Positions 25,494 to 64,000 are shown, counted from the stretch's first letter. The stretch is 64,000 nt of DNA from Escherichia coli (GCF_045037415.1 NZ_CP173438.1), one strand, 5' to 3'. Notes: a model not told the origin generated them from the sequence alone. A program made the numbers and translations.

Positions 25494-26417
25494 TTAACGC
25501 GTTCGCTGCGAAAGCACCTGCTGCTTATCCAGCTTTTGCACCAGCGGCTGCACCACTTTATCCCCATGCTGACCAAAGTATTGATACAGCGTATCGGACG
25601 CACTTTTGGTCAGCACCATAATCTCAATGCGCCGGTTGCCCGCGCTTTGCGGATTTTTGGCATCCAGCAGCATCTGGTCCGCCATTGCACTTACCTGCAT
25701 CACTTTATCTTCCGGCATTCCGGCCTCTTCCAGCACCCGACGAGCTGAAAGCGCGCGATCGCCCGAAAGGTTCCAGTTGTTGTAGATATTGTTTTTGTAG
25801 GCCATCGCATCGGTATGCCCGGTAATAATAATTTTGTTATCGAGCGAGTCGAACACTGGCGCAAGCTCCACCAGCAAAGTTTTAAAGAACGGCATAATCT
25901 TCGCGCTGCCGCGTTCGAACATATTGCGGTTCTGGTCGTCTTTAATCAGCACGCGTAATCCCTGGGGAACAATCTCCATCTCCAGATTCGCTTCCATATG
26001 CGCATCACGGGCGATGGTATTGATACTGGTTGCCAGCTCGCCAAGCTCGGTGGCGGATTTCTTCTTCAGCAGCGCCGTTTTCTCGTTGACGTCGCGCGCT
26101 TTTTTCTCCGTCTCTTCCGGCACCGCCACGGTGGCAGGTTTTGGCGGATGAGACGGGCTGATTTTATTTAACGGCGACAACCCACCACCGTTAAAAATCG
26201 ACTGCCCGTGCAGCGCGGCGATAATGCTTTCACGCTCGGATTTACTGACGCTGTTGACAATCCACAGCGTCATAAATAGCGCCATCATTGCCAAAGTAAA
26301 GTCGGCGAACGCCACCTTCCACGCCCCGCCGTGATGCCCGGCATGATTCTTTTTGATCTGCCGCCGGACGATGGTGGTTTTTGCCCCACGTTCGCGGTGG
26401 TTGCCCGTCTTTCTCAT
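25494..26417 (-). CDS. lafU: Lateral flagellar motor protein, MotB homologue
   Basis: N-terminal TM segment and C-terminal OmpA-like peptidoglycan-binding region; start trimmed to MRKTGN. Confidence 0.85.
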   Translation of the reverse strand: MRKTGNHRERGAKTTIVRRQIKKNHAGHHGGAWKVAFADFTLAMMALFMTLWIVNSVSKSERESIIAALHGQSIFNGGGLSPLNKISPSHPPKPATVAVPEETEKKARDVNEKTALLKKKSATELGELATSINTIARDAHMEANLEMEIVPQGLRVLIKDDQNRNMFERGSAKIMPFFKTLLVELAPVFDSLDNKIIITGHTDAMAYKNNIYNNWNLSGDRALSARRVLEEAGMPEDKVMQVSAMADQMLLDAKNPQSAGNRRIEIMVLTKSASDTLYQYFGQHGDKVVQPLVQKLDKQQVLSQRTR

Positions 26418-26419
26418 GC

Positions 26420-28049
26420 TTATTCTTGCTCCAGCATCGCATTCACCCACGCGTCGAGGTTGGCGAAGGTCGGTTTGGACGCCAGATGCAGCAGCTTACG
26501 CCCGGCGTCCACCGCCAGCAGCGTCGGTTTGCCGCCTGCCTGCGCCACCAGCACAGTGCGCACGCATTCCAGCAAAGAATGTTCCGCCCGCGCCTGCTGT
26601 TCCATGGCGTTGGCTAGCGGGTCCATCAGGCAGTAGCAGATAAACACGCCTAAAAACGTCCCCACCAGAGCCGCCGCCACTTTCAGGCCAATCAGAGCGA
26701 TAGATCCATCAATCGACTGCATGGTGATGATGATGCCCAGCACCGCCGCGCAAATACCAAATCCCGGCATCGCTTCGGCGGTACGTTGCAGCGAGCGCGA
26801 CGGCGTTAACAGGGACTCTTCCGCGGTGTCCAGTTCCTGATCGAGAATGCCTTCCAGCTCATGGGCGTCGATTTTACCCATCGCCATCAGGCGAAAGTTA
26901 TCAGCAATAAAGGTCACCAGCCGCTTCTGGGTTAACACCAGCGGGTATTTCTGGAAAATGGTGCTCTCTTCCGGCTGCTCAATATGCTGATCCAACATCC
27001 GCAGACCGCCGTTTTGCACCATTTCGAGCAACTCATACAGGCACATTAATAGCTGACGCTGAAACTCCGGCCCGAGCTGTTTTTTACTGATCACGCCTTT
27101 AATTTGATGGGCAATCTCTTTCAGCACATGTTTCGGGTTACCAATAATCATCGCCCCGAAACCGGCACCCAAAATAATGATCATTTCCGCCGGTTGCCAG
27201 ATAGCCACTAATTGCCCGCCCGCTTCAAAATAACCGCCAAATACGCAGCCGAGCACCACCAGTAAACCTAATATTTTTTGGGTGATGCTGCCAACTTACT
27301 GATTTAGTGTATGATGGTGTTTTTGAGGTGCTCCAGTGGCTTCTGTTTCTATCAGCTGTCCCTCCTGTTCAGCTACTGACGGGGTGGTGCGTAACGGCAA
27401 AAGCACCGCCGGACATCAGCGCTATCTCTGCTCTCACTGCCGTAAAACATGGCAACTGCAGTTCACTTACACCGCTTCTCAACCCGGTACGCACCAGAAA
27501 ATCATTGATATGGCCATGAATGGCGTTGGATGCCGGGCAACAGCCCGCATTATGGGCGTTGGCCTCAACACGATTTTACGTCACTTAAAAAACTCAGGCC
27601 GCAGTCGGTAACCTCGCGCATACAGCCGGGCAGTGACGTCATCGTCTGCGCGGAAATGGACGAACAGTGGGGCTATGTCGCGCCAGCGCTGGCTGTTTTA
27701 CGCGTATGACAGTCTCCGGAAGACGGTTGTTGCGCACGTATTCGGTGAACGCACTATGGCGACGCTGGGGCGTCTTATGAGCCTGCTGTCACCCTTTGAC
27801 GTGGTGATATGGATGACGGATGGCTGGCCGCTGTATGAATCCCGCCTGAAGGGAAAGCTGCACGTAATCAGCAAGCGATATACGCAGCGAATTGAGCGGC
27901 ATAACCTGAATCTGAGGCAGCACCTGGCACGGCTGGGACGGAAGTCGCTGTCGTTCTCAAAATCGGTGGAGCTGCATGACAAAGTCATCGGGCATTATCT
28001 GAACATAAAACACTATCAATAAGTTGGAGTCATTACCTATTTTTTGCAT
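26420..28049 (-). pseudogene. lafT: Lateral flagellar motor protein MotA homologue, interrupted by IS1 after codon 4
   Basis: ATG CAA AAA ATA at 28049-28038, IS1 at 28037-27278, duplicated codons 2-4 at 27277-27269, remainder of MotA-like ORF to 26420. Confidence 0.8.
27278..28037 (+). mobile_element. insAB: IS1 copy (insA 27336-27611; insB with 11-bp internal deletion)
   Basis: IS1 termini; 9-bp target duplication TATTTTTTG on both sides; 760 bp as printed. Confidence 0.9.
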
Positions 28050-28061
28050 GATTTCTTCACT

Positions 28062-62072: not shown

Positions 62073-62924
62073 ATGCTGAAGTACAGTAAAACGCCAGGCA
62101 TCTTTAAATTAGAAGGTAATCGGCTTGGACGCCCCTACCATCGCCTGCCGACCCTGTTTACGGGGAATTTTGATGTAATTGATTCGCATCTTGGCAGCTA
62201 CTTTCTCAAAAAGCATCGCAGCAATATCACCCTAAAAAAGATTGGCTGCGAAATGGATATTATTAATAAAAATGCCGAGCTGATGGTTTCCCAGGTCGGG
62301 CATCTGGCGTTTGATATTGATCGCTCCTTGCTGTTAATGCTGCTGGGCAATTTTTATGGTCTGGAGTCGTCTCTTGAAGAAGCGAAATCACACAATGGAT
62401 TCCCGACCAAAACGGAAACACGTTTAAAAAACCGCCTCGCGCTGGATATCTGCACGCTGATTTTTAATCTGCAAACCTCCGGTATTGCGCTGAAATTAAA
62501 ACTGGACAGCAGCACGGTAATTACCCACTGGGCGTATCAATTAACCTTTACCCTTGCGGGCGATGAAGAGAGCAGTTTTCGTATTTTGCTCGACGACGCC
62601 CACACCGATTTTATTTTGAATCTGATCCGCCACAGCGAGCACAGTAAACCGCAGCAGGTGGCGAAATCCGTTAATAAACCGGCCCTGATTAAAGAAATCA
62701 TCCGCTCCCTGCCGCTGACCCTGAACGTCAAAATCGCCGAGCTATCGATGAATGTCGCGGATCTGGCACAGATTAAAGCCGGGGATATTTTACCCATATC
62801 ACTGGGAGAAACGTTCCCGGTGGCGATTGGGCAATCTGAATTATTTAGCGCCCTGATTGTGGAAGACAAAGACAAACTGTTTTTGTCGGAGCTGGCGGGA
62901 AAAAATGAGAACAACCATGAGTAA
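62073..62924 (+). CDS. lfiM: FliM-like switch protein
   Basis: 283 aa; position upstream of fliN homologue; C-terminal SpoA-like region. Confidence 0.7.
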   Translation: MLKYSKTPGIFKLEGNRLGRPYHRLPTLFTGNFDVIDSHLGSYFLKKHRSNITLKKIGCEMDIINKNAELMVSQVGHLAFDIDRSLLLMLLGNFYGLESSLEEAKSHNGFPTKTETRLKNRLALDICTLIFNLQTSGIALKLKLDSSTVITHWAYQLTFTLAGDEESSFRILLDDAHTDFILNLIRHSEHSKPQQVAKSVNKPALIKEIIRSLPLTLNVKIAELSMNVADLAQIKAGDILPISLGETFPVAIGQSELFSALIVEDKDKLFLSELAGKNENNHE

Positions 62925-63288
62925 GCAAGAAGATATTTTAGCCGGGGATTTTGGCCTCACCGATGAAGTTGCGCCTGTCGCCAAATCCGCCGACGCCGAA
63001 ACGCTGGTCACCCGCCTGGAAGACCGATTTTCCGACTCGATGACGCTACTGAAACGCATTCCGGTGACCTTAACGCTGGAAGTATCGTCGGTGGAAATCA
63101 TGTTAGCCGACCTGCTTAACATCGACGACGACACGGTGATTGAACTGGATAAACTCGCCGGGGAGCCGCTGGATATTAAAGTGAACAATATCCTGCTGGG
63201 CAAAGCGGAAGTGGTGGTGGTCAACGAGAAGTACGGCCTGCGCGTGCTGGAATTTAACACCCGCGATATCAACGACCTGGCGCCATGA
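62917..63288 (+). CDS. lfiN: FliN-like switch protein
   Basis: Start at MSKQED; conserved FliN C-terminal SpoA domain. Confidence 0.85.
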   Translation: MSKQEDILAGDFGLTDEVAPVAKSADAETLVTRLEDRFSDSMTLLKRIPVTLTLEVSSVEIMLADLLNIDDDTVIELDKLAGEPLDIKVNNILLGKAEVVVVNEKYGLRVLEFNTRDINDLAP

Positions 63289-63296
63289 AACGCCGC

Positions 63297-64000
63297 ACTC
63301 AACTGACGCTGGGCCTGGCGCTGCTGGCGCTCGCCCCGCTGGCGCTGGCCCAGGGCGGCGATATCGCACTGCTTAACGTGGTCACCCACGGCAACACTCA
63401 GGAGTACAGCGTCAAAATTCAGGTACTGATTCTGATGACCCTCGTCGGTTTGCTGCCGACGATGGTGCTGATGATGACCTGTTTCACGCGTTTTATTATC
63501 GTGCTGTCACTGCTGCGCCAGGCGCTGGGGCTGCAACAAACGCCGCCAAACCGCATTCTGATTGGTATTGCGCTCTCACTCACCCTGCTGGTAATGCGCC
63601 CCATCTGGCTCAATATTTACGACCACGCGGTAGTGCCGTTCGAAAACGATCAGATTACCCTGACCGATGCGTTAAGCACCGCCGCGACGCCGCTAAAACG
63701 CTTTATGCTGGCGCAGACCGACAAAAAAGCGATGGCGCAAATCATGACCATCGGCGGCGCGAAGGGCAATGCCGCCGACCAGGATCTCTCCATCGTGGTG
63801 CCCGCCTATGTACTGAGCGAGCTGAAAACCGCCTTCCAGATTGGCTTTATGATTTACATCCCGTTTCTGGTTATCGACCTGATTGTCGCCAGCGTATTGA
63901 TGGCGATGGGGATGATGATGCTGTCGCCGCTGATTGTTTCGCTACCCTTTAAACTGATGCTGTTTGTGCTGATTGACGGCTGGTCGCTGACCATCGGCAC
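63297..64000 (+). CDS. lfiP: FliP-like export apparatus protein, 3' end beyond window
   Basis: ATG at 63297; signal peptide and ..FTRFIIVLSLLRQALG.. FliP motif; open to window end. Confidence 0.85.

Follow-up and report, generated by a model that had tools for sequence, protein, structure and literature searches.

The window analysed in this study is a 64,000-nucleotide stretch of Escherichia coli DNA (GCF_045037415.1, NZ_CP173438.1), and its positions 25494-64000 are filled by a Flag-2 gene cluster for a lateral-type flagellum. The cluster starts at the lafU stop codon beside dinB and exits the window within lfiP. A tblastn search with the Flag-2 protein set of enteroaggregative E. coli 042 recovered all genes from lafU to lfiP, and these match the 042 proteins over their full length at amino-acid identities of 93-100% and follow the gene order already published. 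The features are as follows, with gene names, including lafZ and lafW, taken from De Maayer et al. 2020 (PMC6993521).

24368-25423: dinB, adjoining the lafU end of the cluster
25494-26417, minus strand: lafU, MotB-type stator subunit, intact, 98.7% identical to 042 LafU over its full length
26420-27280, minus strand: lafT body, MotA-type stator, codons 2-287
28038-28049, minus strand: lafT start codon and codons 2-4 (MQKI), left as a stub of 30 codons that runs into IS1
28062-28778, minus strand: lafS (sigma-28), intact
28798-29265, minus strand: lafF (fliL-like), intact
29273-30334, minus strand: lafE (fliK-like), intact
30331-30642, minus strand: lafD, intact
30647-31039, minus strand: lafC (fliS-like), intact
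31062-32378, minus strand: lafB (fliD-like), intact
34223-35137, minus strand: lafA, lateral flagellin, intact, 100% amino-acid identity to 042 LafA
35623-36465, plus strand: lafZ, ToxR/CadC-like regulator
36524-37501, minus strand: lafW, putative hook-associated protein
37518-46747, minus strand: lfgL, K, J, I, H, G, F, E, D, C and B (hook-associated, rings, rod, hook), intact
44994-45264: BIME of four REP units, forming the 271-bp spacer that separates lfgD from lfgE
46829-47566, plus strand: lfgA
47648-47926, plus strand: lfgM, anti-sigma-28, above its curated cut-off
47939-48367, plus strand: lfgN
48495-55218: variable region 1 (VR1)
48495-49427, plus strand: lafV, FliB-like lysine methylase
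49474-51912, plus strand: GT2 glycosyltransferase, 812 aa
51913-54822: AT-rich cargo, 2.9 kb
54823-55218, minus strand: TagD-like cytidylyltransferase
55221-61686, minus strand: lfiJ, I, H, G, F and E with lafK, intact
62073-62924, plus strand: lfiM
62917-63288, plus strand: lfiN
63285-64000, plus strand: lfiP, cut by the window end

The published Flag-2 architecture comprises 39 core genes in three clusters, with variable regions VR1 and VR2 (PMC6993521), and 35 of the 39 conserved genes lie in the window. Cluster 3 (lafW, Z, A, B, C, D, E, F, S, T and U) is represented by all 11 genes in order, with lafT split by an IS1 element, and all 14 genes of cluster 2 (lfgN, M, A, B, C, D, E, F, G, H, I, J, K and L) are full length. 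[quoted passage not shown] Beyond these, the locus carries four small cargo ORFs and three modification genes that are conserved. Its dinB side is visible in the window, and rayT/yafL is placed at the lfhA end from identical genomes only.

Profile evidence agrees with these assignments, as LafA (NCBIfam NF033376, "lateral flagellin LafA", 667 bits, cut-off 440), LafU (NF005273, 579.6 bits, cut-off 383), LafS (NF009091, 445 bits, cut-off 339) and the LafT body (MotA1 TIGR03818, 373 bits) each score above their curated NCBIfam cut-offs. The lafS-to-lafB block (28062-32378, minus strand) gives full-length 042 matches at 93-99% and is annotated likewise in genomes that are 100% identical. A preliminary description of this DNA had recognized a lateral-type flagellar locus that follows dinB and reaches the window end, and the LafA model score and a gene order equal to that of 042 and EC958 bear this out. 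Its figure of about 40 flagellar genes is a slight overcount, with the expected order correctly given. Descriptions of Flag-2 date back to 2005 for E. coli and to 2011-2015 for ST131. The locus is thus already described, and its recognition here is correct but ordinary.

Several local features deserve mention. The lfgC frame (45978-46409, minus strand) is unbroken, and VR2, between lafZ and lafW, is empty. LafK is a sigma-54 activator of 328 aa that has the sigma-54 interaction domain and lacks a receiver domain; it aligns to sigma-54 activator models from the central domain onward only. The lfgD/lfgE spacer includes a match to the REP-derived Rfam family naRNA4 (45111-45189), and we rejected as a gene an 85-aa ORF (45011-45268) that lies wholly inside the REP repeats. 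The 2.9-kb VR1 cargo occurs in 407 of 5426 genomes, in every case with at least 99% identity. Its four small ORFs had no match in NCBIfam, PADLOC or PHROGs, nor did three of them (all except the 89-aa ORF) in Pfam. The 182-aa cargo ORF gave only near-identical E. coli proteins in a word-index homologue search and nothing in a profile search of solved structures; it has no Pfam match of its own, and 13 of its 33 remote relatives (21-28% identity) match Imm11 (PF07791).

Insertion sequences in lafT and between lafA and lafB

The Flag-2 locus of the ST131 strain EC958 (NZ_HG941718.1, 265398-306005) aligns to the window with 0 mismatches and 0 gaps over 39.3 kb outside two IS elements, neither of which is present in EC958.

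27281-28037, plus strand: IS1, 757 bp, inserted after lafT codon 4
32560-33991, plus strand: IS1397 (IS3 family), 1432 bp, with a 3-bp duplication TTT

A 9-bp target sequence, TATTTTTTG, is duplicated around the first element, at 27272-27280 and 28038-28046. The element shows the hallmarks of IS1, which we took to be a 768-bp element with terminal repeats, insA/insB and an 8-9-bp target duplication. The copy is 98.6% identical to K-12 IS1A and retains both ends, and an 11-bp internal deletion in insB renders it defective. The same insertion in lafT is found in 55 of 5426 complete genomes. The preliminary description had placed an IS1 in lafT, and we located it with its junctions and target duplication.

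The insertion splits the first four codons of lafT, start codon included, from the remainder of the gene, in which residues 2-287 of 042 LafT still align (tblastn). The lafT frame meets an in-frame stop inside the IS1 end, and the earliest start codon within the body is a GTG at codon 9. On the lafT strand the element contains a terminator-like hairpin, and scanning the IS1/lafT junction for sigma-70 promoters revealed none facing outward that could rescue lafT. We regard intact stator genes and demonstrated expression as the marks of a functional motile flagellum, and here lafT is severed after codon 4. We infer that the Flag-2 stator could not be made, so that any filament assembled would not rotate. 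Furthermore, lafU transcription should drop because IS1 sits inside the operon.

The NCBI annotation pipeline PGAP conceals this damage. For strain THO-003, it calls the IS1-interrupted lafT an intact 288-aa MotA (WP_029700697.1) with an ATC start inside the IS1 end, a call that we provisionally treat as an artefact. Since automatic annotation can mask the disruption in this way, surveys of "intact" Flag-2 loci that use annotation only would overcount them.

The second element interrupts a REP element in its loop, at a point with the lafA stop codon on one side and a terminator-like hairpin on the other, and the flanks GCCGGATAAGGCGTTT and TTTACGCCGCATCCGGC of the insertion form a single REP unit that it splits. 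Insertion into a REP palindromic unit loop with a 3-4-bp duplication is characteristic of IS1397, whose target specificity has been reported in the literature, and RefSeq labels an identical copy IS1397. This insertion is present at the same place in 2 of 5426 complete genomes, and among the best-matching complete RefSeq genomes listed no single genome carries both elements. Located downstream of lafA and upstream of the lafB sigma-54 promoter, from which about 135 bp separate it, IS1397 probably alters nothing but the 3' end of lafA. We considered and rejected the idea that it cuts lafB from its promoter, because an exact sigma-54 site falls between the element and lafB. An upstream activator site could conceivably lie beyond IS1397 and hence be separated from lafB.

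Promoter motifs and a proposed control cascade

Candidate promoters were located at the following positions.

32411-32425, minus strand: exact sigma-54 promoter TGGCAC-N5-TTGC, 32 bp upstream of lafB
35182-35209, minus strand: candidate sigma-28 (LafS) promoter TTAAGTTT-N11-GTCGTTTT, upstream of lafA
46785-46799, minus strand: exact sigma-54 promoter TGGCAC-N5-TTGC, 37 bp upstream of lfgB
from 47581: sigma-28-like site TAAAGTTT-N12-ACCGCTTT, upstream of lfgM

The two TGGCAC-N5-TTGC sites are the only exact matches in the 64 kb; both are on the correct strand and are conserved in 042, and sigma-54 promoters at lafB and lfgB have been noted in strain PCN033 (PMC4578781). Three sigma-28-like sites, upstream of lfgM, lfgK and lafA, are likewise conserved in 042, with the caveat that the motif was defined post hoc from the sites themselves. 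The motif upstream of lafA is presumed from its sequence to be a LafS promoter.

Judged from sequence, all parts of a lateral cascade are present: the sigma-54 activator LafK, the -24/-12 sites and the LafS/LfgM pair. Flag-2 as a whole specifies a complete second lateral-type flagellum, with export gate, ATPase, MS/C ring, rod, P and L rings, hook, junction and cap proteins, the flagellin LafA and the stator LafTU. In the cascade that we propose, the receiver-less LafK would activate two operons, one for the basal body and hook that starts at lfgB and another that extends from lafB to lafU and carries the sigma-28 gene lafS. The anti-sigma factor LfgM would hold LafS until the hook is complete, and freed LafS would then switch on the late genes lafA, lfgKL and lfgMN. 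VR1 may contribute flagellin-modifying enzymes.

Selection, expression and interpretation of the locus

Over 29 core genes (22 kb, dS 0.21), dN/dS against 042 is 0.049, and dinB is similar at 0.03. For LafA, dN is 0 at a dS of 0.17. The value near 0.05 indicates that the Flag-2 system was under purifying selection. Furthermore, 34 complete genes are free of frameshifts and stops. The preliminary description had named alignment to a reference locus as a check, which yields the gene order of 042 and EC958, and further frameshifts in the structural genes as a potential refutation, of which there are none. Its statement that the set is intact apart from the IS1 in lafT is right in that lafT is the sole broken coding sequence, and it overlooked the intergenic IS1397. 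The word "intact" holds for reading frames and does not extend to Flag-2 motility, given that the identical, uninterrupted EC958 allele is silent in the laboratory.

In EC958, whose lafT is intact, no LafA was detected by western blot and no Flag-2 motility was observed at 28 or 37 C (PMC4637896). The locus may thus be silent with or without IS1, and the insertion may have no phenotype. Strong purifying selection has acted on a locus that is not known to be expressed in E. coli, and the importance of the present case is small beyond correct annotation. Taking the evidence together, we conclude with considerable confidence that this region is the chromosomal E. coli Flag-2 cluster in the allele of the pandemic ST131 clone, with two later IS insertions, and that it is near-intact in sequence and presumably dead for motility.

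Four other interpretations were weighed. It is possible, if rather unlikely, that the locus is a dead relic, unexpressed and in an early stage of the decay that led to the K-12 lfhA-lafU deletion, with the IS elements as neutral hits in silent DNA. [quoted passage not shown] However, the dN/dS of 0.05 and the 34 complete genes without frameshift or stop argue against long-term neutrality, and silence in LB broth and soft agar is not silence in nature.

A more speculative proposal, to which we give little credence, is that the ST131 Flag-2 is a conditionally expressed organelle kept by selection and not a relic, and that the IS1::lafT sublineage is a natural stator knock-out building non-rotating filaments for adhesion, secretion or sensing. 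Its basis is again the low dN/dS, together with a flagellin protein unchanged across 17% synonymous divergence. If it were true, the recurrent IS hits in the ST131 clone would represent an ongoing change of function and not simple decay.

Very improbable in our estimation is a rotation-free function of Flag-2 in ST131 (protein export, adhesion or surface sensing), under which stator loss would be tolerated or favoured and the remainder selected. Strong purifying selection across the core genes, flagellin included, the intactness of every non-stator gene and the persistence of the IS1::lafT allele in 55 complete genomes are compatible with such a role, and a possible secretion-system role is raised by De Maayer et al. 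(PMC6993521). Against this, EC958 showed no expression under the conditions tested (PMC4637896), the low dN/dS or high identity of lafU and lafT between lineages indicates that the stator was conserved until recently, and the 55 genomes are near-identical and may represent one young clone and not a sign of tolerance.

Finally, we find scarcely credible a working motility organelle in which lafT starts at a non-canonical codon (ATC, or GTG at codon 9) with read-through or outward transcription from IS1, or in which Flag-1 MotAB replaces LafTU: the PGAP call across the THO-003 junction, the duplicated codons 2-4 that preserve the native QKIL past the junction and an AGG 7 nt before the codon 9 GTG speak for it, whereas E. 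coli initiates very poorly at ATC and no Shine-Dalgarno sequence stands ahead of this codon, a codon 9 start would delete part of the first transmembrane helix, the IS1 end offers no sigma-70-like promoter and the element carries the same-strand hairpin, and the intact EC958 allele likewise confers no Flag-2 motility (PMC4637896).

Comparison with known systems

The near-intact, motility-dead ST131 allele that we favour has its closest counterpart in EC958, which carries the same genes, VR1 cargo and REP clusters, none of its Flag-2 genes bearing a pseudogene flag. The Flag-2 locus of 042, reportedly the one that served Ren et al. 2005 as reference, occupies the same chromosomal site and has the same order of three clusters and the same sigma-54 sites, with nucleotide identity of 93.5-97% and protein identity of 93-100%. 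It differs in that its lfgC is flagged as frameshifted, a relE/HTH pair lies between lafW and lafZ, the 2.9-kb VR1 cargo is absent, REP spacers are shorter (23 bp between lfgD and lfgE versus 271 bp here) and yafNO stands beside dinB. According to Kakkanat et al., "lafWZ, maf-5 and motY" are missing from EC958 in comparison with 042, which is at odds with the 042 annotation. There, the only extra genes are the relE/HTH pair, and the discrepancy is probably a difference in naming.

The laf systems of Vibrio parahaemolyticus and Aeromonas use the sigma-54 activator LafK, a dedicated sigma-28, LafA and LafTU, and their clusters are without chemotaxis genes. The control logic proposed here appears to be the same. 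In contrast to those systems, the enterobacterial locus is one contiguous block, its LafK lacks the receiver domain and no motY-like gene is annotated within it. Surface-induced expression, in addition, is not known from E. coli (PMC4637896). At the other extreme is K-12 MG1655, which shares the site between rayT/yafL and dinB. There, lfhA and lafU are pseudogenes that abut beside dinB with the interior deleted, in accord with the preliminary remark that K-12 keeps only remnants (PMC6993521 agrees), whereas in the window the interior is present.

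Gene content and regulation of the Flag-2 locus

The preliminary description placed a lateral-type flagellar locus, Flag-2, after dinB and in the expected order up to the window end, and held that K-12 keeps only remnants of it. Both points are borne out. When all Flag-2 proteins of enteroaggregative strain 042 were searched against the window with tblastn, the matches were full-length, shared 93-100% identity, and lay in the published order, and 35 of the 39 conserved genes (gene set of De Maayer et al., PMC6993521) were seen; lfiQ, lfiR, lfhB, and lfhA are outside the window. 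In K-12, the same site holds fused lfhA and lafU pseudogenes, in agreement with the literature (PMC6993521). The distance from lafU to the end of dinB is 70 bp.

Gene groups in the window
Cluster 3: lafU, lafT, lafS, lafF, lafE, lafD, lafC, lafB, lafA, lafZ, lafW
Cluster 2: lfgL back to lfgB, then lfgA, lfgM, lfgN
Variable region 1: between the cluster 2 and cluster 1 genes
Cluster 1 (part): lfiJ back to lfiE, lafK, then lfiM, lfiN, lfiP (cut by the window end)

Curated NCBIfam models were matched above their cut-offs by LafA (lateral flagellin; score 667, cut-off 440 bits), LafU (LafU; 580, 383 bits), LafS (FliA-type sigma factor; 445, 339 bits), the LafT body (MotA; 373, 304 bits), and LfgM (anti-sigma factor FlgM; 49.5, 40.75 bits). 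LafK matches sigma-54 activators only from their central AAA+ domain onward and therefore lacks a receiver domain. Only two exact TGGCAC-N5-TTGC sites occur in the 64 kb, one located 32 bp ahead of lafB and the other 37 bp ahead of lfgB. Both are on the coding strand and kept in 042, and sigma-54 sites at these genes were earlier reported for strain PCN033 (PMC4578781). The motif TwAAGnnT-N11/12-nYCGnTww precedes lfgM, lfgK, and lafA; at these three sites the boxes are kept in 042 and the spacers differ. The counterparts of these three genes in the primary flagellar system would be late genes. As a candidate late-gene promoter, this motif is only suggestive because it was defined after the sites had been seen. 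In the proposed cascade, LafK and sigma-54 would drive the basal-body and hook genes together with the lafB-lafU operon, to which lafS belongs, and LafS would then drive the filament genes with LfgM as a check.

Comparison of the window allele with that of 042 gave a dN/dS of 0.049 over 29 genes (dS 0.21), and dinB was similar (0.03). LafA (34223-35137) is 100% identical to the 042 protein, with no amino-acid change at a dS of 0.17, and lfgK, lfgG, lfiJ, and lfiN follow the same pattern; purifying selection on LafA and these like genes is very strong. Taken together, the dN/dS value and the unchanged LafA indicate that Flag-2 was kept by selection until recently. To our knowledge, Flag-2 expression has never been seen in E. 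coli. In the ST131 strain EC958, whose lafT is intact, neither LafA production nor Flag-2 motility was seen at 28 and 37°C, whether in LB broth or in soft agar (PMC4637896).

Two insertion sequences in the Flag-2 locus

The annotated references compared were NZ_OZ040716.1 (near-identical), THO-003 and EC958 (both ST131), and 042. EC958 aligned to the window in three blocks (22499-27280, 28038-32559, and 33992-64000) with 0 mismatches and 0 gaps, and both breaks are insertion sequences, save for which the two Flag-2 alleles are identical. Both insertions are young, as the window has gained no point difference from EC958.

Features at the two insertions
26420-27280: body of lafT, codons 2-287
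27281-28037: IS1, 757 bp, with a 9-bp duplication TATTTTTTG on both sides
28038-28049: lafT start codon and MQKI
32560-33991: IS1397, 1432 bp, with a 3-bp duplication (TTT)

The structural gene set had previously been described as apparently intact apart from the IS1 in lafT. This gene is indeed the sole broken one, and careful alignment against EC958 revealed no further frameshift or other lesion in the Flag-2 genes, but the IS1397 in the lafA/lafB spacer had been overlooked. The earlier observation and its interpretation are thus correct with minor corrections.

IS1 lies after lafT codon 4. The frame has a stop codon within the IS1 end, and the first possible start afterwards is a GTG at codon 9. 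Relative to K-12 IS1A, an 11-bp deletion in insB shortens the element to 757 bp and frameshifts its transposase, so this copy could move only with the help of another IS1. It sits within the operon, upstream of lafU, and contains a terminator-like hairpin on the lafT/lafU strand; a scan for an outward-facing sigma-70-like promoter found none. Given the lost lafT start, this hairpin, and the lack of such a promoter, the Flag-2 stator is most likely absent.

The same insertion is common to 55 complete genomes. In THO-003, RefSeq/PGAP annotates the interrupted lafT as an unflagged 288-aa MotA (WP_029700697.1) with an ATC in the terminal repeat of IS1 as its start codon (window 26420-27286, minus strand; 28054-28920 in L007, the THO-003 locus). 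We regard this call across the IS1 junction as an artefact, and counts of intact Flag-2 loci made from annotation alone would overlook the lafT disruption.

IS1397 divides a single REP unit (GCCGGATAAGGCGTTT / TTTACGCCGCATCCGGC), a known preferred target of this element, between the lafA stop codon and a hairpin resembling the lafA terminator. Only 2 of 5426 complete genomes carry it at this place. One of them, NZ_OZ040716.1, was studied in detail; it lacks the IS1 in lafT, and its IS1397 copy is identical but flanked by a 4-bp duplication (GTTT) instead of TTT (window 32557-32562 and 33989-33994 versus 10298-10303 and 11730-11736 in its locus, L001). Either IS1397 entered this REP loop twice independently, or one base pair was lost afterwards. 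Because IS1397 is downstream of lafA and lies ~135 bp ahead of the sigma-54 promoter of lafB, the core promoter is still joined to lafB. An activator site farther away might be affected.

Variable region 1 and its AT-rich insert

Products and open reading frames of variable region 1
FliB-like lysine methylase (weak)
812-aa protein: GT2 domain at the N-terminus, C-terminal part faintly similar to CDP-glycerol transferases
TagD-like cytidylyltransferase
51913-54822: AT-rich insert, 2.9 kb, about 36% GC, between the glycosyltransferase and TagD-like genes
52394-52795, 52908-53177, 53820-54368 (plus strand), 54456-54803: four small open reading frames (ORFs) of the insert

The methylase, GT2 protein, and TagD-like gene accord with the role in flagellin modification that has been proposed for this region (PMC6993521). 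The insert is present in 407 of the 5426 complete genomes, always with at least 99% identity. None of its ORFs matched NCBIfam, PADLOC, or PHROGs, and the three searched against Pfam (all except the 89-aa ORF at 52908-53177) had no match there. The 182-aa ORF (53820-54368) has ~40 remote relatives (21-28% identity), and 13 of the 33 that were aligned match Pfam Imm11, a polymorphic-toxin immunity protein, which suggests that the insert is an orphan immunity-gene cassette. No toxin gene adjoins this ORF, and hence we consider it probably an orphan immunity gene.

Surrounding sequence and comparison with other strains

An island at about 4100-14100 adjoins tRNA-Thr (14014-14086) and holds AbiEi/AbiEii, a type I restriction system, integrase remnants, and, as in P4-like elements, isrK and C4 antisense RNA matches (12938-13125). 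The hsdS specificity gene, upstream of Flag-2 in the window, carries a full-length IS1 (768 bp; 11087-11854) and a frameshift at 12504-12513, where a poly-A tract is A9 rather than the A8 of THO-003; the restriction system is probably inactive. An Rfam IS009 match lies at 980-1180. Within Flag-2 spacers, Rfam naRNA4, a REP/BIME-derived RNA family, is matched at 34096-34173, 45111-45189, and 61814-61890, and one match is the four-REP block between lfgD and lfgE, inside the lfgB-to-lfgL operon.

Most of the Flag-2 region is present in ~900-1250 of the 5426 complete genomes, which agrees with the published estimate that roughly 20% of E. coli strains have it (PMC4578781). It is common to many ST131 genomes at 99.9-100% identity, and the locus is already known as a feature of this heavily studied clone. 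K-12 and 042 have yafN-yafO between dinB and yafP, whereas in the window dinB and yafP overlap directly (23919-25423) and the toxin-antitoxin pair is therefore absent; the downstream rtcB-like gene and prfH are intact here and pseudogenes in K-12. Unlike the window, 042 has a relE/HTH pair between lafW and lafZ and lacks the AT-rich insert. The lfgD-lfgE spacer is 271 bp with four REP units in the window and 23 bp in 042, other REP spacers also differ in length, and lfgC is intact in the window but frameshifted in 042.
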